Below, in pieces: positions 24,653 to 32,000 of a DNA stretch of 32,000 nt. A program made the translations under genes and the position numbers. Below the pieces are notes generated by a model that was not told where the DNA came from, made no database searches, and saw only the letters and a program-made list of their open reading frames with translations. Source of the DNA: Candidatus Electrothrix yaqonensis (lineage in GTDB: Bacteria; Desulfobacterota; Desulfobulbia; Desulfobulbales; Desulfobulbaceae); NCBI GenBank assembly GCA_047651235.1, contig CP178758.1, positions 1,800,001-1,832,000 on the forward strand, written 5' to 3'. Position 1 is the stretch's first letter. The number at the start of each line of letters is the position of its first letter.

Positions 24653-26860
24653 ATGCTCACTCCTGAACAGCGCAGACAGAAAAAACGGTTCATCCGTTAT
24701 GTTATTGTCTTCTGTATGCTGCTCATTCCGCTGCTGGCCTATACCCAGCACAGTCTGCTGCAGGGGAAACTTAACCTGCCTGTGTCCAGCACGGTCCTGA
24801 TTTTCGCGCTGATCAATATTAACGGTCTGCTGCTGCTGCTCATGCTGTACCTAATTCTGCGGAATCTGGTGGAGCTTGTTTTTGAGCGCCGGAACAAAAT
24901 TCTCGGCTCCCAACTGCGGGTACGGCTGGTTATCGCCTTTGTTTCTCTGACCATGGTACCTACGGTCATTTTGTTTCTTGTTGCCTTGGGGTCTGTTTCC
25001 ACAGCAATGGAATACTGGTTCAACAGTAATGTGGAAGATTCCCTGCAGTCCTCGCTGAAGCTGGCCCAGAATTTGTTCCATGAAGTGGAGAACCGGGCTG
25101 CCAATATGGGCAGCCATCTCGGTCTGCTGCTGGAAAAGGCGGACCTGAGTATGGAAGATCACAGCGGATTGCAGCAGCTGTTCGATAAAACGCTTGCCAT
25201 TGTCCCGCTCGGCGCACCGGATGCCCTGACTTTGGTCAGTCCTCATCTGAATGTCGCAGTTTCCGCAAAAGGAGAACGTCTGACAGCAATATCCCTGCCT
25301 GAAGTTCCTACGGAAGCGCTGCGCAAGGCCGGGAACAGCAATGAGCCGGAAATTATCACCCGCCAAGTGCAGGCAGGGGAACTGGTGCAGGCTATTGTAC
25401 CGGTGCGTTCGAAAAAACAGAGTGATCTTTTTCTGGTGACCACGCTGCTGATCCCTGCAGACAAACTGGCGCTTATGCAGTCAGTTTCTAAGGGAATTAC
25501 AGGGTATAAACAGCTTGTTATGCTCAAGGCGCCGATCAAGTTGAGTATGATCATCATGCTGCTGATCATTACGCTGCTGATTCTCTTCGGTGCCATCTGG
25601 TTTGCCTTTGTTATTGCCCGGTCCATGACCGGCTCTATTAATAAACTGGCCGAGGGAACCCAGCGGGTTGCCGACGGCGAGCTGGATTTTACCATTGAAA
25701 AAGAATCAGAGGACGAAATGGGGTTGCTGGTTGATTCATTCAACTCCATGACCGCCGACCTGCTGGCAAGCAACCGGCAGCTTGCCGAGGCCCATGAAGC
25801 CCTGCAGCAGTCCAACCTGCTCTCGGAGCAGCGGCGGCGGTATCTGGAAACCATCCTCAAAAATGTTGCAGCCGGGGTTATCGCCATTAACGAGCATAAC
25901 GAGGTTACCACTATTAATCCTTTTGCGGAGAATCTGCTGAAAATAGATAGACAAAAGTTTCTCCATCATGATTTTCATACCGTGCTGCCAAAGGCGCATG
26001 TGACTGTCATGGAAGACTTTTTTAATGACCTGGTCAGTTCCGGTAAGCGTTCCATTGAACGGCATTTCAACCTGACGGTACGGAAAGGAGAAGCCTATTC
26101 CCTGCTGGTGAATATCACCCGACTGATCGATGACCGGCAGCGTTCCATCGGCTATGTTATCGTATTTGATAATCTCACCAAGCTGGAAAAGGCGCAGCGT
26201 CTGGCAGCTTGGCAGGAGGTGGCCCGCAGGATTGCCCATGAAATCAAGAATCCGCTGACCCCGATCCAGCTCTCCGCCCAGCGGCTCCGTAAACGGTATC
26301 TGGCAACTATAGAAAATGATCGTGAGATTTTTGAACAGTGCACCGGCACGATCATCAGTCAGGTGGATGAAATCAAGCGGCTGGTCACTGAATTTTCCGA
26401 TTTTGCCCGGATGCCCAGGGTGAAAAAACAACAGGCGGATATTGTTGCTATTGCCGCAGACACCCTGGTGCTGTATCGTGAAGGGCATAAGCATATCATC
26501 TTTCTGCTGGAATATGACGAAATTCCGCTGTTCTCCTTTGATCCGGTGCAGATCAAACGGGTACTGATCAACCTGCTGGACAATGCGGTCACCGTGCTTG
26601 CCGACGGAGGAACAATACACATTGAACTGCGTCTGAACCGCAAAGAGCAGATTGTCCGACTGCTGGTCAGCGATAACGGACCGGGTATGTCTGAGCAGGT
26701 CAGACGACGCCTGTTTGAGCCGTATTTTTCAACCCGCAAATCCGGGACAGGCCTTGGTCTTGCTATTGCCCATACCATTGTAACCGAGCATAACGGGATG
26801 ATTGAGGTGCATGACAAGAACCCTTCAGGAACTGTTTTTGCTGTGGAACTGCCTCTGTAG
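24653..26860 (+). CDS. ntrY: NtrY-like sensor histidine kinase (multi-TM, HAMP, PAS, HisKA, HATPase_c)
   Basis: 735-aa ORF. It has N-terminal TM helices and a HAMP region (ARSMTGSINKLAEGTQRVADGELDF). The H-box is AHEIKNPLTPIQLSAQRL, the typical NtrY form. The N/G boxes are DNAVTV, DNGPGM and GTGLGLAI. Confidence 0.88.
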   Translation: MLTPEQRRQKKRFIRYVIVFCMLLIPLLAYTQHSLLQGKLNLPVSSTVLIFALININGLLLLLMLYLILRNLVELVFERRNKILGSQLRVRLVIAFVSLTMVPTVILFLVALGSVSTAMEYWFNSNVEDSLQSSLKLAQNLFHEVENRAANMGSHLGLLLEKADLSMEDHSGLQQLFDKTLAIVPLGAPDALTLVSPHLNVAVSAKGERLTAISLPEVPTEALRKAGNSNEPEIITRQVQAGELVQAIVPVRSKKQSDLFLVTTLLIPADKLALMQSVSKGITGYKQLVMLKAPIKLSMIIMLLIITLLILFGAIWFAFVIARSMTGSINKLAEGTQRVADGELDFTIEKESEDEMGLLVDSFNSMTADLLASNRQLAEAHEALQQSNLLSEQRRRYLETILKNVAAGVIAINEHNEVTTINPFAENLLKIDRQKFLHHDFHTVLPKAHVTVMEDFFNDLVSSGKRSIERHFNLTVRKGEAYSLLVNITRLIDDRQRSIGYVIVFDNLTKLEKAQRLAAWQEVARRIAHEIKNPLTPIQLSAQRLRKRYLATIENDREIFEQCTGTIISQVDEIKRLVTEFSDFARMPRVKKQQADIVAIAADTLVLYREGHKHIIFLLEYDEIPLFSFDPVQIKRVLINLLDNAVTVLADGGTIHIELRLNRKEQIVRLLVSDNGPGMSEQVRRRLFEPYFSTRKSGTGLGLAIAHTIVTEHNGMIEVHDKNPSGTVFAVELPL

Positions 26861-26920
26861 GTACGAAGACGAAAGAGCTGCAATGACAAAAATCGTGAAC
26901 CGTAACAGATAAATGCCCCT

Positions 26921-28282
26921 ATGCCTGCGACCATTCTGATTATTGACGACGAAGCTCCTATCCGTGAAGTCCTGTCCGGCATTTTGAGTGATGAGGGTTT
27001 TCAGCCCCTTGCTGCTGCGTCTGCGGAAGAAGGGCTTGTCATCCTGGCGGAGCAGAAAGTGCATCTGGTCCTGCTCGATATCTGGCTGCCGGGCATGGAC
27101 GGCATTGCAGCCCTGGAAAAAATCAAGCAGGATGGCAACGAGGTGCCGGTCATCATGATTTCCGGGCACGGCACCATTGAAACAGCAGTGCAGGCAACCC
27201 GGATCGGCGCCTTTGATTTTATCGAAAAACCGCTGTCCTACGACAAGGTAATCCTTGCCATTAATCAGGGCCTGCATGTTGCCCGCCTTGAGCAGGAGAA
27301 TAGGCTGCTGCGGGAGTCAACACCCGGAGATTCCGAAATCATCGGCGACTCCGCCCTGATCCGGCAGATGCGCTTGCAGATCGAACGGGTCGCCCCCACA
27401 GATGCCTCGGTCCTGATTCTCGGTGGGCACGGGACCGGCAAGGAGCTGGTTGCCCAGTCCATCCACCGCCAGTCCGACCGTGCAAAACGGCCCATGATTG
27501 CCATCAACTGCGCAGCCATTCCGGAAGAGCTGATTGAGTCAGAACTGTTCGGCTATGAAAAAGGCGCTTTTACTGGGGCGGACAGAGCCAAAAAGGGCAG
27601 GTTTGATCAGGCGGACGGCTCAACCCTGTTTCTTGATGAAATCGGTGACATGAGCTTGAAGAGTCAGGCCAAAGTGCTGCGTATCCTGCAGGAAAGAAAA
27701 TTCGAGCGGGTCGGGGGCAACCAGACCATTGAGGTGGACGTCCGGATTCTGGCTGCTACCAACAAGGACCTGGAGAAGGAGATCGAGGCGGGTAATTTTC
27801 GGGCCGATCTCTTTTACCGGCTTAATGTGGTGCCGATCCGGCTTCCTGATCTGAAAGAACGTCTGGAAGACATCCCGCCGTTGGTGGCCTCCTTTCTGGA
27901 GCGGTTCCGGGGTAAGGGGCTGGGGGAAAAACGGTTTGCCGGAGATGCCCTGAGTATGCTCATGCAGCATCCTTGGCCCGGCAATATCCGGGAACTGCGC
28001 AATATGGTAGAGCGGCTGATGATTATGGTGCCGGGGCAGGTCATCACGGCGGATGATGTTGCAGTGTTCCTCAATCCCGGTGCATTTCAGCCAGTTGCCA
28101 TCCATTTTGAAGCAGGGTACCGCCATCTTGCCTTCAAAGATGCCCGTAGGCAGTTTGAACATGATTACCTCAAGGCCAAACTTGAGGAAAACGAGGGCAA
28201 TGTTTCCAGAACCGCTGAGCTGATCGGTATGGAACGGAGCCATCTGCATAAAAAAGTGAAGGCACTCGGTATCAAGGTCTGA
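26921..28282 (+). CDS. ntrX: NtrX-like sigma-54-dependent response regulator (REC, AAA+, Fis HTH)
   Basis: 453-aa ORF. The receiver domain shows ILIIDDE...LLDIWLPGMDG. The AAA+ sigma-54 interaction module shows GGHGTGKE, ESELFGYEKGAFTGA, TLFLDEIGDM and RADLFYRLNV. The C-terminal HTH is GNVSRTAELIGMERSHLHKKVKALGI. Confidence 0.9.
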   Translation: MPATILIIDDEAPIREVLSGILSDEGFQPLAAASAEEGLVILAEQKVHLVLLDIWLPGMDGIAALEKIKQDGNEVPVIMISGHGTIETAVQATRIGAFDFIEKPLSYDKVILAINQGLHVARLEQENRLLRESTPGDSEIIGDSALIRQMRLQIERVAPTDASVLILGGHGTGKELVAQSIHRQSDRAKRPMIAINCAAIPEELIESELFGYEKGAFTGADRAKKGRFDQADGSTLFLDEIGDMSLKSQAKVLRILQERKFERVGGNQTIEVDVRILAATNKDLEKEIEAGNFRADLFYRLNVVPIRLPDLKERLEDIPPLVASFLERFRGKGLGEKRFAGDALSMLMQHPWPGNIRELRNMVERLMIMVPGQVITADDVAVFLNPGAFQPVAIHFEAGYRHLAFKDARRQFEHDYLKAKLEENEGNVSRTAELIGMERSHLHKKVKALGIKV

Positions 28283-29306: not shown

Positions 29307-29676
29307 TTTTAGGGGGTGTGATTAAAAGTGCGGTTTTCGGTAGTAGGCCCGAACGACTTCAAGCGTGCGTTGTGAGATCCTGAGGTTCGTTTTTCGTCCG
29401 CAGGATGGCCTTTAGAAACTTGTTTTTCAAATAGCTTCTGAAACGGATGAATCCATTTAAAATCGACAGTTTGCAGGAATACCCGCCAAGAGACATCCCG
29501 CGAGGGGCCGCAGTTCCGGCGAGGTTTTAAAACAGCTTCTTATCTCTGCAGCATCAGTATGTCCTCATGATCTGACGGAGCACACAATACGCCCATTGCG
29601 ACAGCAATACCCCCTCAACAGGGCAAAAACGGTCCGAAACTGATCCTGCTTTTCTACACACCCTGTTTTGAACGAA

Positions 29677-29900
29677 TTAACAGGATGATCCGCCCGACTT
29701 GAAAAAGACCTCCTCCAAGGTGGAGGCGGTCAGAATCCGCTCCGACCAGGTCTCCAGCATTGCGCAGGATGCCTGATGCAGCCGCTCCTCGGCCCAGCCG
29801 GACAGAACGCTGAAACGCGTTTGCGCAGCATCCACAGCAGCAGACGAACCTTTCCTTCCTGCCGTCCCTGGTTGACATATCTGCGTACGTACTGCGCTGC
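29677..29900 (-). pseudogene. Frameshifted C-terminal remnant of a DUF4351 / Rpn-family (PD-(D/E)XK nuclease, putative transposase) gene
   Basis: One minus frame reads YVNQGRQEGKVRLLLWMLRK (about 29820-29880). The adjacent frame continues RFSVLSGWAEERLHQASCAMLETWSERILTASTLEEVF to the stop at 29677. Together they match the DUF4351 pattern G.QEG.....LL..L..RFG.L.......L...S...LE.W..R.L.A.sLeEVF. A 1-2 nt frame break lies near 29815-29822, and no nuclease domain is found upstream. Confidence 0.5.
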
Positions 29901-30337
29901 GATGTTGCTGTTTAGACAGGTCAAGTATCAAGGCAACTGTCCGGCTGTGTACAGTTTTTTATGTAAAAATAATTAATATTTTTTTGACTATACTTGGAAA
30001 AAAAATATTTTTTTAAGCAAACAAGCAGATATTGAGGAAGCTTTTTTGTAAATGCTTTCTTTTTGATCCTGCTTTCCTTTGTATATTACTATAAAAACAG
30101 CATGTTATGTCGAATTCAAGAGTGATAATTTCTTCTATGTATCTTTTTGAAATAAATATATTTTTTTCTTGACTTGGCGTTTAAAGTTTTATACTCTTGT
30201 ATAAGAAAGTTGATTACTGCTGTTTCCTTCTGAATTGCAAGAGAAAGAGAGGAGAAAATTTGCGGTGCGGCTTTCGTAAAAAGTTTGTCAGTCGTATACA
30301 GAAACAACATTCATAATTATGGCAGCGCTTATTCAGT

Positions 30338-30452
30338 AAGCAGGTGCTGTGCTTTCCGGTCGGAAACGGAAAGCTGATAAAGCCACAACCGCCGCGAGGC
30401 GGTGTCGGAAAACTTCGGGTCTCCGGAAAGGAGACGGCCGGGTTGCCTGCTT
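30338..30452 (+). ncRNA. Candidate structured RNA core, unit copy 1 (unassigned family; leader or riboregulator)
   Basis: The closing helix is aagcaggtg (30338-30346) / tgcctgctt (30444-30452). It encloses three hairpins: 30351-30374 (gctttccg/cggaaagc), 30388-30403 (accgcc-GCGA-ggcggt) and 30419-30435 (gtctcc-ggaaa-ggagac). See the findings for covariation between copies. Confidence 0.45.
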
Positions 30453-30479
30453 TTAGTCAGATGTACCGGGAGGTAAGTT

Positions 30480-30617
30480 ATGAAGTCGAAGCTCCTTAAA
30501 ACGGTCTGTAACCATACAGTCCTTTTACCTTTCACAAACACGAACATTCATAATTATGGCAGTGCTTATTATTCAGTAAGCAGGTGCTGTGCTTTCCGGT
30601 CGGAAACGGAAAGCTGA
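30480..30617 (+). CDS. Hypothetical 45-aa sORF opened by the unit-1 SD/ATG
   Basis: GGGAGG (30468-30473), then 6 nt, then ATG. It reads MKSKLLKTVCNHTVLLPFTNTNIHNYGSAYYSVSRCCAFRSETES and stops at TGA TAA inside unit 2. It is below the 60-aa cutoff of the ORF track. Coding status is unproven. Confidence 0.3.
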   Translation: MKSKLLKTVCNHTVLLPFTNTNIHNYGSAYYSVSRCCAFRSETES

Positions 30618-30692
30618 TAAAGCCACAATCGTCGCGAGGCGATGTCGGAAAACTTCGGGTCTCCGGAAAGGAGACGGCCGGGTTGCCTGCTT
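30578..30692 (+). ncRNA. Candidate structured RNA core, unit copy 2
   Basis: Same fold as copy 1. The middle hairpin is atcgtc-GCGA-ggcgat, with C-G to U-A at pair 2 and C to U (giving G-U) at pair 5. Confidence 0.45.
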
Positions 30693-30719
30693 TTAGTCAA
30701 ATGTACCGGGAGGTAAGTT

Positions 30720-30854
30720 ATGAAGTCGAAGCTCCTTAAAACGGTCTGTAACCATACAGTCCTTTTACCTTTCACAAACACGAACATTCATAATTATGGC
30801 AGCGCTTATTCAGTAAGCAGGTGCTGTGCTTTCCGGTCAGAAACGGAAAGTTGA
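30720..30854 (+). CDS. Hypothetical 44-aa sORF opened by the unit-2 SD/ATG
   Basis: Same SD spacing. It reads MKSKLLKTVCNHTVLLPFTNTNIHNYGSAYSVSRCCAFRSETES. It differs from the first sORF by two synonymous changes and one in-frame codon. Confidence 0.3.
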   Translation: MKSKLLKTVCNHTVLLPFTNTNIHNYGSAYSVSRCCAFRSETES

Positions 30855-30929
30855 TAAAGCCACAACCGCTGCGAGGCGGTGTCGGAAAACTTCGGGTCTC
30901 CGGAAAGGAGACGGCCGGGTTGCCTGCTT
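30815..30929 (+). ncRNA. Candidate structured RNA core, unit copy 3
   Basis: Same fold. The first hairpin closes with G-U (cggaaagt) and its loop reads gtcagaaa. The middle hairpin is accgct-GCGA-ggcggt, with a G-U at the loop-closing pair. Confidence 0.45.
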
Positions 30930-30956
30930 TTAGTCAGATGTACCGGGAGGTAAGTT

Positions 30957-31091
30957 ATGAAGTCGAAGCTCCTTAAAACGGTCTGTAACTATACAGTCCT
31001 TTTACCTTTCACAAACACGAACATTCATAATTATGGCAGCGCTTATTCAGTAAGCAGGTGCTGTGCTTTCCGGTCGGACACGGAAAGCTGA
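30957..31091 (+). CDS. Hypothetical 44-aa sORF opened by the unit-3 SD/ATG
   Basis: Same SD spacing. It reads MKSKLLKTVCNYTVLLPFTNTNIHNYGSAYSVSRCCAFRSDTES, with H12Y and E41D relative to the other copies. Confidence 0.3.
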   Translation: MKSKLLKTVCNYTVLLPFTNTNIHNYGSAYSVSRCCAFRSDTES

Positions 31092-31165
31092 TAAAGCCAC
31101 AATCGTCGTGAGGCGATGTCGGAAAACTTCGGGTCTCCCAAAGGAGACGGCCGGGTTGCCTGCTT
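31052..31165 (+). ncRNA. Candidate structured RNA core, unit copy 4
   Basis: Same fold. The middle hairpin is atcgtc-GUGA-ggcgat, so the tetraloop is still GNRA. The third hairpin keeps gtctcc/ggagac while its loop is shortened from ggaaa to caaa. Confidence 0.45.
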
Positions 31166-31194
31166 TTAGTCAAATCTGTACCGGGAGGTAAGTT

Positions 31195-31422
31195 ATGAAA
31201 TCGAAGTTCCCCAGAAGCGGCTTGCAGCTGTCTGTTTTCTTCAGCTGCGCCAGCAGTTCAGCTGGTCGCCGCCACTCTTCTCCTTCTGTTCGGAAAAAAC
31301 ACAAAATATTTACGGATAGTATCGGCTCCAAGTGTCATCGATCAGGTGCAGTTTTAGCTCTGTCTCCAGATTTCAAAGAGGGACAGTTCGACGATACTGA
31401 AAAACATCATTCAACCTGCTAA
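31195..31422 (+). CDS. Hypothetical 75-aa ORF opened by the unit-4 SD/ATG (Ser/Lys/Arg-rich, no recognisable family)
   Basis: It has the same GGGAGG-N6-ATG and the first four residues MKSK as the sORFs, then reads unique sequence (FPRSGLQLSVFFSCASSSAGRRHSS...). The composition is not typical of a globular protein, and AT-rich DNA follows. Confidence 0.3.
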   Translation: MKSKFPRSGLQLSVFFSCASSSAGRRHSSPSVRKKHKIFTDSIGSKCHRSGAVLALSPDFKEGQFDDTEKHHSTC

Positions 31423-31664
31423 AAAGATATTTTTGACACTTTATTTCTCTAATGGGCAACATTTGTAGATTTTTATCCTATATTTTACGTTTTATATTTT
31501 ATATTTTTGGCAAACAATGACATAATATAAAAAAAGTAGCTTAAAAACAATTTTTCTCTTGACACAAGAAGCAATACGATTTACGCTTATCAAGCAATAC
31601 TCGAAAGCAAAAAATAGATATCACGCTTCTTAAGAATATTTTGCTTCGACTGGAGGTTTTGAGA

Positions 31665-32000
31665 ATGGATAGATATTTTACAATAATACTACTGATGTTA
31701 TTTCTTTGTACTGCGTCTGTGGCTATTGGAAAAGAAAATAAACAATTTTCCGGTGCTTTTTTGATTGACCAAACTGTAAAAGCAAACGATTTTACCGGGA
31801 AATCTGTTAGTGATGCCGGTGTTGCCCAAGGCGGAAATGTTGTTACAGGAATGGCGATTGCAGGAGTAGGTCAGAACGCAATTCTTGACGGTGACCTTGA
31901 ATTGAAAATGAAAAAAGGCGAGCGCAACACCCAGGGCCTGAACGTTGTTTCCGGCAAAGTAACGGCGCTTGTCGGTCAGATCGGCGTGGTTGATGAGGAT
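31665..32000 (+). CDS. Secreted Gly/Val/Gln/Asn-rich protein, N-terminal 112 codons (runs off the right edge)
   Basis: Absent from the ORF track because there is no stop in the window. GGAGG (31652-31656) lies 8 nt before ATG 31665. The signal peptide is MDRYFTIILLMLFLCTASVAIG. The frame then stays open to 32000 (...GVAQGGNVVTGMAIAGVGQNAILDGDLELKMKKGERNTQGLNVVSGKVTALVGQIGVVDED). I recognise no family. Confidence 0.6.
   Translation, partial: MDRYFTIILLMLFLCTASVAIGKENKQFSGAFLIDQTVKANDFTGKSVSDAGVAQGGNVVTGMAIAGVGQNAILDGDLELKMKKGERNTQGLNVVSGKVTALVGQIGVVDED

Follow-up and report, generated by a model that had tools for sequence, protein, structure and literature searches.

A predicted four-unit tandem array of c-di-GMP-I riboswitches upstream of a small secreted-protein gene in a cable bacterium

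A 32,000-nucleotide (nt) stretch of the genome of the cable bacterium Candidatus Electrothrix yaqonensis YB6 (contig CP178758.1, positions 1,800,001 to 1,832,000; here called the window, with position 1 its first letter) carries four near-identical, head-to-tail repeats just downstream of hemB. A preliminary description of this DNA held that no standard feature type explains the array. This turned out to be wrong, as every unit contains a complete aptamer of the c-di-GMP-I (GEMM-I) riboswitch class, scoring above the Rfam gathering threshold. The array is almost certainly explained by four complete c-di-GMP-I riboswitch units in tandem, and an apparently unexplained repeat becomes an ordinary feature that can be annotated. 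The overall explanation that we favour, and consider probable, is that this four-unit array of translational ON switches forms the leader of a gene cluster. The locus would be a concrete, predicted output of cyclic di-GMP (c-di-GMP) signalling in an organism not yet amenable to pure culture.

Layout of the array and parts of the repeat unit

Tandem Repeats Finder, a check that had been suggested earlier, reports one array in the window at 30306-31210 (period 237, 3.8 copies, 94% matches, 1% indels, score 1632). The unit boundaries, set from the sequence and a MAFFT alignment, agree with the unit starts proposed before and with their spacings of 237, 240 and 237 nt (Table 1). One 21-nt core sequence from the unit was counted four times in the window and not once in 100 shuffles. 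Between copies we count 3-11 substitutions and 0-6 indel columns over the 214 columns common to all four (93-99% identity), so that the near-identity described earlier stands, while the range of 4-9 changes given for it is slightly low for the most distant pair. At alignment columns 105, 108, 118 and 181, copies 1 and 3 agree with each other and so do copies 2 and 4, in support of a duplicated dimer. The similarity of copy 4 ends a few codons past an ATG at 31195. That ATG had been seen before; it can now be given a role, as the start codon that stands behind the ribosome-binding site of each unit. The array is, as had been claimed, essentially non-coding and adjoined by AT-rich, promoter-like DNA. 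An array of clustered regularly interspaced short palindromic repeats and a mobile element are rejected here as they were there, the former because the units abut without spacers and the latter for want of a transposase. We also reject a protein-coding repeat: the leader peptide evolves neutrally and the local open reading frames (ORFs) have no Pfam match.

The whole window was searched against Rfam at gathering thresholds, which for RF01051 (c-di-GMP-I, GEMM-I) means 35 bits. This gave four matches to RF01051 on the plus strand, scoring 54.0-55.8 bits and covering model positions 1-87 of 87 in every unit. Each aptamer consists of two adjacent hairpins (P2 and P3) closed by P1, a structure of 37 pairs, and each unit has an outer P1 helix, AAGCAGGU with GCCUGCUU, that lies outside the Rfam model. 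The arrangement is of the tandem kind: four complete aptamers of the same class, 237-240 nt apart, with only non-conserved frames of 44-75 codons between them.

The nucleotides of the ligand pocket are the same in four of four units. The cmscan alignments place a G at model position 11, an A at 38 and a C at 83, positions that we take to be G20, A47 and C92 in the numbering of the Vc2 riboswitch; the A stands after the P1b pair and the C lies within UGCC. The P2 loops (GCGA, GUGA and GCAA) are all of the GNRA type, with variation restricted to the N and R positions. In type-1 representatives the GNRA tetraloop of P2 docks on P3. Because the pocket is canonical, c-di-GMP is the predicted ligand, not cyclic GMP-AMP (cGAMP) or the ligand of a variant. 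The variant families RF03167 and RF03168 and the cGAMP-sensing GEMM-Ib of Geobacter belong to the same clan, and the units here are told apart from them by their diagnostic nucleotides: the G, A and C of the canonical class stand where the others have G-G-C, U-A-U or A20. The c-di-GMP-I-GGC variant (RF03167) was rejected since an A, not a G, stands at the A47 position and since a permissive search gave 54.4-58.4 bits for the window units, under its gathering score of 59. GEMM-Ib was rejected on the G, not A, at the G20 position of all units, and the specificity of the c-di-GMP-I-UAU variant on the canonical pocket nucleotides.

Pairing was counted over seven closely related sequences, so these statistics have low power. 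Standard pairs fill 100% of the cells in six units (those of the window and of the related contig L082, described below), and 99% when a third lineage is added. When the partner strand is slid, standard pairs fall to 32-50%, against 99-100% of the 222-259 true pair cells. Two pairs are compensatory, both of them in P2, and the remaining variable helix positions change on one side only. The variant sets accgcc..ggcggt and atcgtc..ggcgat, pointed out in the preliminary description, are real, and we reinterpret them as compensatory changes between the two strands of the P2 stem. Every one of the roughly 16 variable positions of the aptamer domain is either in a loop or preserves a pair. Because pairing, GNRA loops and pocket have been kept despite substitutions, all four copies look functional.

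Each unit also has parts that the Rfam model does not include. Between the 5' strand of P1 and the ligand-binding junction there is an extra 8-base-pair (bp) hairpin, GCUUUCCG-GUCGGAAA-CGGAAAGC, whose stem is kept and 100% paired in seven of seven units from three lineages; its sole change, C to U in two units, retains a G-U pair. P1 is followed by 14-16 nt, the segment ACCGGGAGGU with a GGGAGG ribosome-binding site, 5-6 nt and an AUG, which makes a strong site with good spacing. This segment, the proposed switching strand, does not differ between the six units of the window and L082. In every one of the seven sequences it can pair with the 5' arm of the extra hairpin at 10 of 10 positions. 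In five of the six units no partner forms a better duplex with the ribosome-binding-site segment than this arm (-18.7 to -23.2 kcal/mol). The proposed anti-Shine-Dalgarno strand is this arm plus the next two bases (GCUUUCCGGU). In the third lineage, contig L096, the helix has two one-sided changes and both preserve pairing.

The AUG opens a leader ORF. Over the sequence contexts examined, the open frames have 45, 75, 44, 32 and 46 codons, each with P = 0.014-0.12 in shuffles. In units 1-3 the leader ORF crosses the P1 strand and hairpin of the next unit and stops at UGA-UAA, the 5' edge of the next aptamer, an overlap that argues for coupling of the units. The leader peptides are not conserved (about 14 non-synonymous versus 5 synonymous changes outside the aptamer in a hand count; terminal ORFs of 75 versus 32 codons), and Pfam has no match for the 75-residue ORF. 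Divergence of this kind fits regulatory leader ORFs. Further on, units 1-3 have a weak terminator-like hairpin, GGUCUGUA-ACCA-UACAGUCC and then UUUUACCUUUC, whose U-rich tail is also complementary to the ribosome-binding-site segment; a different hairpin takes this place in unit 4. Every unit has its own ribosome-binding site, AUG, anti-Shine-Dalgarno complement and weak terminator-like hairpin. The P1 helix with its trailing UUUU was dropped as a terminator, because its stem closes over a domain of 100 nt with a run of just four U residues behind it.

Table 1. Features of the array and its immediate surroundings, in window positions
Feature	Positions	Strand	Basis
Whole array, four head-to-tail units	30306-30542, 30543-30782, 30783-31019, 31020-about 31210	+	Tandem Repeats Finder, alignment, pairwise differences
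Aptamer core, unit 1	30372-30450; structured domain with outer P1 helix and extra hairpin 30338-30452	+	RF01051 55.8 bits; pair counts
Aptamer core, unit 2	30612-30690; domain 30578-30692	+	RF01051 54.0 bits
Aptamer core, unit 3	30849-30927; domain 30815-30929	+	RF01051 54.2 bits
Aptamer core, unit 4	31086-31163; domain 31052-31165	+	RF01051 55.3 bits
Extra 8-bp hairpin	30351-30374, 30591-30614, 30828-30851, 31065-31088	+	Conserved stem
Proposed switching strand and ribosome-binding site (ACCGGGAGGU-AAGUU-AUG in unit 1)	30465-30482, 30705-30722, 30942-30959, 31180-31197	+	
Leader ORF, unit 1 (45 codons)	30480-30617	+	ORF list
Leader ORF, unit 2 (44 codons)	30720-30854	+	ORF list
Leader ORF, unit 3 (44 codons)	30957-31091	+	ORF list
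Leader ORF, unit 4 (75 codons)	31195-31422	+	ORF list
Weak terminator-like hairpin, units 1-3	30503-30533, 30743-30773, 30980-31010	+	Folds
Different terminator-like hairpin, unit 4	31217-31241	+	Folds; consensus scan match at 31217-31231
Candidate array promoter (TTGACT, 15 nt to TATACT or 17 nt to TACTCT)	30169-30197	+	Weak, read by eye
Second candidate promoter	29984-30011	+	Scan match
Promoter-like TTGACA-17-TACGCT, 78 nt ahead of the downstream gene	31559-31587	+	Read by eye
Downstream gene, 5' part (ACL93V_08665, hypothetical protein, 137 residues)	31665-32000	+	Translation, family alignment, AlphaFold model

Related riboswitches in other organisms

A second array of this type is found on L082, a metagenome contig from the Joint Genome Institute. 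Its two units, set at an interval of 235 nt, have their aptamers at 131-209 and 366-444 and stand ahead of the orthologous gene, whose product is the closest homologue of the protein encoded downstream of the window array. Both flanks are shared between the two arrays, and so is the difference in unit tails, one type for 'internal' and another for 'terminal' units. A version with two or more units therefore predates the split of YB6 and the L082 organism, and YB6 appears to have gone from two units to four by duplicating a 477-nt dimer. Since the orthologous gene has a two-unit version with homologous flanks ahead of it, the array is conserved and under selection. A comparison of the two species gives 89% identity for the aptamer block, 67% for the inter-aptamer block and 70% for the downstream gene; the spacer that separates array from gene, at 40%, can in effect not be aligned. 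The figures for the aptamer block and the gene argue for a stronger constraint on the RNA domain than on the protein. The aptamer blocks of one species are 96.5-97% identical to each other and have species-specific variants in common, which points to gene conversion or repeated duplication. The two-unit and four-unit states in related cable bacteria offer a natural experiment on how copy number relates to the response to a second messenger.

The flanks of the arrays have some features of their own. The sequence TTCYTTCTG followed by an A-rich run is present at both array flanks in both species (window 30219-30260 and 31278-31306; L082 1-30 and 553-581). Its right-flank copy is the only piece of the spacer that can be aligned, at about 90% over 29 nt. 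In L082, about 125 nt past the ribosome-binding site of the last unit, 585-600 reads GCCUCCCGGACA, a near-perfect complement of that site (-23.9 kcal/mol). It sits at the distance expected for the hairpin of a next unit, and the window is without CUCCC at the aligned position.

A single-copy relative was found on contig L096 (10117-10268, minus strand) through a protein search with a spurious 72-residue antisense ORF, and the same element occurs in L097 and L098. It retains the extra hairpin, the switching strand, the AUG and a frame of 46 codons. Its score on c-di-GMP-I-UAU (RF03168) is 67.5 bits, above the threshold, yet its pocket nucleotides are canonical.

Exact searches with the 21-nt unit core gave no match in genome_contigs and none in metagenome_contigs, a set that is evidently without L082, whose contig has that 21-mer. 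The HemB protein, whose gene lies just before the array, shares 82-85% identity with proteins of Desulfobulbus and Desulfocapsa, and a HemB synteny search returned 80 loci. Neither a c-di-GMP riboswitch nor any similarity to window 29530-32000 is present in the eight Desulfobulbaceae loci that are closest, and the array is therefore not a conserved neighbour of hemB. Assemblies that break at repeats like this array may hide further examples. The short-read contigs L085 and L088-L094, which carry genes related to those downstream of the array, begin 90-440 nt upstream of the first cluster gene, and a short-read contig with an identical HemB, described below, also ends early.

Proposed mode of action and rival explanations

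The mode of action that we propose, a translational ON switch acting through leader ORFs, is tentative, and we rate it at somewhat below an even chance. When no ligand is bound, the 5' arm of the extra hairpin would pair with the ribosome-binding site (10 bp) and sequester it, and the 3' arm would pair with the 3' strand of P1 and the U residues that follow. Binding of c-di-GMP would lock P1 and the extra hairpin, leaving the site free and the leader ORF translated, so that each unit would act as an ON switch for the translation of its own leader ORF. The anti-Shine-Dalgarno helix crosses P1 and the two are impossible in one nested fold, which is why we treat them as alternatives. Compared with the fold of minimum free energy, the alternative (OFF) fold is less stable by 1.4-12.5 kcal/mol.

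Translation of the leader ORFs would cover a C-rich, G-poor stretch in each inter-aptamer spacer, where the C/G ratio is about 2.1-2.3 over 60-90 nt. This ribosome cover may protect the leader of about 1.4 kilobases (kb) from decay or from early termination, possibly by Rho. Predicted intrinsic terminators are absent from L082 1-1000, and those between array and gene in the window are weak. Because the spacers are C-rich and the intrinsic terminators weak or absent, we favour the possibility that leader translation may be coupled to transcript survival, possibly via Rho. The downstream gene cluster would then respond steeply to c-di-GMP.

Several observations weigh against this interpretation. 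ViennaRNA ranks the aptamer-competent fold below the proposed OFF fold in energy even without ligand. The ribosome-binding site of full-length internal units can also pair with a downstream U-rich or CCUCC segment, and this alternative partner makes the polarity of the switch uncertain. The anti-Shine-Dalgarno helix shows no double compensatory change in the seven sequences, and base composition is the sole ground for invoking Rho. Between the array and the gene lies a 455-nt AT-rich spacer with a promoter-like site; if that site (31559-31587) is active, the gene does not depend solely on read-through from the array. The single riboswitch of L096 precedes different genes, a duplicated pair that encodes a 304-residue secreted protein with a weak PilJ N-terminal match and a 266-residue protein. 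Finally, eleven further loci of the protein cluster (L083-L095) gave no riboswitch match; in most of them the sequence ahead of the first gene is limited to 90-440 nt.

Known c-di-GMP-I tandems work through terminators, the triple tandem of Bacillus thuringiensis among them (PMC9481103), and a transcriptional scheme of that kind is one alternative. In it, each unit would combine an aptamer with its own intrinsic terminator, and the polymerase would have to pass four c-di-GMP-dependent checkpoints to reach the gene. The terminator would be the GGUCUGUA...UACAGUCC hairpin with UUUUACCUUU, or in unit 4 the hairpin at 31217-31241, and the GGGAGG segment would be an anti-terminator strand and not a ribosome-binding site. 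A hairpin with a U-rich tail is indeed found 20-40 nt after each AUG in the window, and ACCG-GGAG can pair with CUCC...CGGU, including the base of the terminator-like hairpin. Against this, the hairpin, which contains a U-U mismatch, is weak at about -7.7 kcal/mol, and the proposed anti-terminator, at -7.1 kcal/mol, is no stronger. The U-tract is missing in unit 1 of L082, where, as stated above, no terminator is predicted at all. The spacing of the ribosome-binding site and the AUG is kept in seven of seven units, which a transcriptional scheme does not require. We consider it unlikely. It is also conceivable that the array stands alone, as four copies of a c-di-GMP-regulated small-ORF gene or of a small RNA that contains a riboswitch, every copy with start and stop signals of its own, or as an RNA that buffers c-di-GMP or acts in trans, with the downstream gene using the promoter-like site at 31559-31587. 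That site and the AT-rich spacer would suit such an arrangement, as would the ribosome-binding site, AUG, open frame and terminator-like hairpin of every unit, the CATAAT hexamer, similar to a -10 element, at the head of each unit, and the L096 riboswitch, which is followed by its 46-codon ORF and an A/U-rich hairpin before an AT-rich gap. The peptides, however, are not conserved, with the excess of non-synonymous changes and the unequal terminal ORFs described above. The internal -10-like hexamers are without a -35 element and a promoter scan finds no promoter inside the units. Array and gene have stayed adjacent in two species despite a spacer that has diverged beyond alignment, and we regard a stand-alone array as improbable.

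The number of copies might also mean nothing for regulation, if the four are a recent neutral amplification, or an assembly expansion, of a riboswitch with one or two units. Their 93-99% identity and the mere two units of the related species would be expected in that case, and a Logan short-read contig with an identical HemB, apparently from the same strain, stops about 220 nt past hemB, short of the array, and is thus uninformative on copy number. Neutral copies would not be expected to keep four aptamers intact, with all of the variable positions in loops or pair-preserving. An assembly artefact is argued against by the private substitutions of each copy in pairwise comparison, which are not expected from an assembly expansion, by the independent two-unit metagenome contig, and by the closed YB6 genome, a Nanopore assembly with Illumina polishing (PMC12093952). 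We judge neutral amplification or assembly expansion to be very improbable. A bolder variant of the translational ON switch is a relay, in which the units would not be independent: each leader ORF stops precisely where the anti-Shine-Dalgarno hairpin of the next unit has its 3' end, and ribosomes translating from one unit would unzip the following one and free its ribosome-binding site, so that copy number would tune both threshold and gain. This is a long shot, a little less far-fetched than neutral amplification. If it were true, copy number (two versus four) would tune the c-di-GMP switching of an operon for amyloid-like beta-solenoid envelope proteins, and these proteins, found mainly in cable bacteria so far, could be components of a sheath or fibre scaffold.

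Known systems, the likely target and the surroundings

Tandem c-di-GMP-I riboswitches are the commonest tandem class in a systematic survey, which lists 347 doublets and 12 triplets of this class and no quadruplet (PMC9481103). A more digital response has been shown for the B. thuringiensis triple tandem Bc3-Bc5 (Zhou et al. 2016, cited in PMC9481103). Like the surveyed systems, the array lines up complete units of the same class on a single strand, followed by a gene for a secreted or surface protein, and by analogy a steeper, more switch-like response to c-di-GMP would be expected of it. With four units it exceeds the catalogued doublets and triplets. Unlike them, it consists of whole-unit repeats that are 93-99% identical, its platform looks translational (a ribosome-binding site, an AUG and a leader ORF) without a strong intrinsic terminator, and its host is a cable bacterium. 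Within the known tandem kind, the array is set apart by its four units, the near-identity of the whole-unit repeats, the additional hairpin, which is conserved, and a platform that looks translational and includes leader ORFs. In the literature searched there is no paper that links cable bacteria with riboswitches, and the literature there that names both Electrothrix and c-di-GMP concerns multicellular magnetotactic bacteria, not cable bacteria.

The structural reference of the class is the Vc2 riboswitch of Vibrio cholerae, in which the ligand stabilises P1 and which is reported as an ON switch. The units here share with Vc2 the two-hairpin aptamer, the GNRA loop on P2 and the G20/A47/C92 pocket. 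They differ from it in the 8-bp hairpin added between the 5' strand of P1 and the junction, and in being present in four copies. Translational riboswitches and leader ORFs that are coupled to Rho-dependent termination are known from ribB, thiM and lysC of Escherichia coli and from mgtA of Salmonella with its leader ORF mgtL. The logic proposed here would be similar, in that a ligand-gated ribosome-binding site would decide whether an untranslated C-rich leader is exposed; the difference is that Rho is in our case suggested by base composition only. No c-di-GMP-I riboswitch is known to work via Rho-coupled translation of a leader, and four leader ORFs in series would be unprecedented.

The array ends 455 nt ahead of a gene at 31665 on the same strand, and neither the ORF list nor Pfam points to a protein gene in between. 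We think that the gene cluster starting here is the regulatory target, with somewhat better than even confidence. The 112 N-terminal residues encoded from 31665 are 100% identical to ACL93V_08665 of Ca. Electrothrix sp. YB6, which is encoded on a 3.74-Mb contig. Its family comprises about 41 clustered sequences of 123-147 residues (mostly 141-147) with a signal peptide and three repeats of about 35 residues that carry a near-invariant Q-G-x-N-V, where the N is invariant and Q, G and V are found at 90-100%. Most members have a C-terminal CxxC. The named sources are Ca. Electrothrix YB6, Ca. Electronema TJ and two Neisseria, and a metagenome scan with the protein pattern of the family gave one short locus. 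The family has no Pfam match and a sequence profile search of the PDB gave nothing significant. AlphaFold models a three-rung beta-solenoid with a mean predicted local distance difference test score of 75 and most core blocks at 82-97. The best PDB matches of this model are the functional amyloids FapC and CsgA and other beta-solenoids, with weak scores. The protein is thus predicted to be a secreted three-repeat beta-solenoid, and, by analogy with what this messenger generally does, control by c-di-GMP would fit a secreted, possibly fibre-forming protein with a role in the envelope or matrix. The likely target would then be an uncharacterised family of small secreted beta-solenoids of about 143 residues with a C-terminal CxxC, made up mostly of cable-bacterium sequences.

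The gene belongs to a conserved four-gene cluster of two paralogues, a protein of about 110 residues and a protein of 370-510 residues with a weak peptidoglycan-binding match. The cluster adjoins a class-I transfer RNA synthetase gene (window 31665 on; L082 878-2919; L085, L086, L089 and L090).

On the other side, just upstream of hemB, window 24653-28282 encodes a sensor histidine kinase (HAMP, PAS, HisKA and HATPase domains) and a sigma-54-dependent response regulator. No GGDEF, EAL or HD-GYP domain was found among the genes checked, which are the eight larger ORFs searched with Pfam and the annotations of window 18.3-29.3 kb. Small ORFs of 64-84 residues lie on the minus strand at 29654-29931, divergent from the array across an AT-rich region, and end near a terminator-like hairpin at 29727-29708. 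The only one tested (29677-29931) has no Pfam match and no similarity in relatives; these ORFs could be a small gene, a gene remnant or nothing.

A last observation concerns the paralogues of the downstream gene. The YB6 proteins P0001 (31665 onward) and P0003 (ACL93V_08695, outside the window) are identical over their last 50 or so residues and differ in their N-terminal halves, which suggests recent recombination or partial duplication. Their genes are separated by five others in YB6, and the orthologues in L082 are adjacent.

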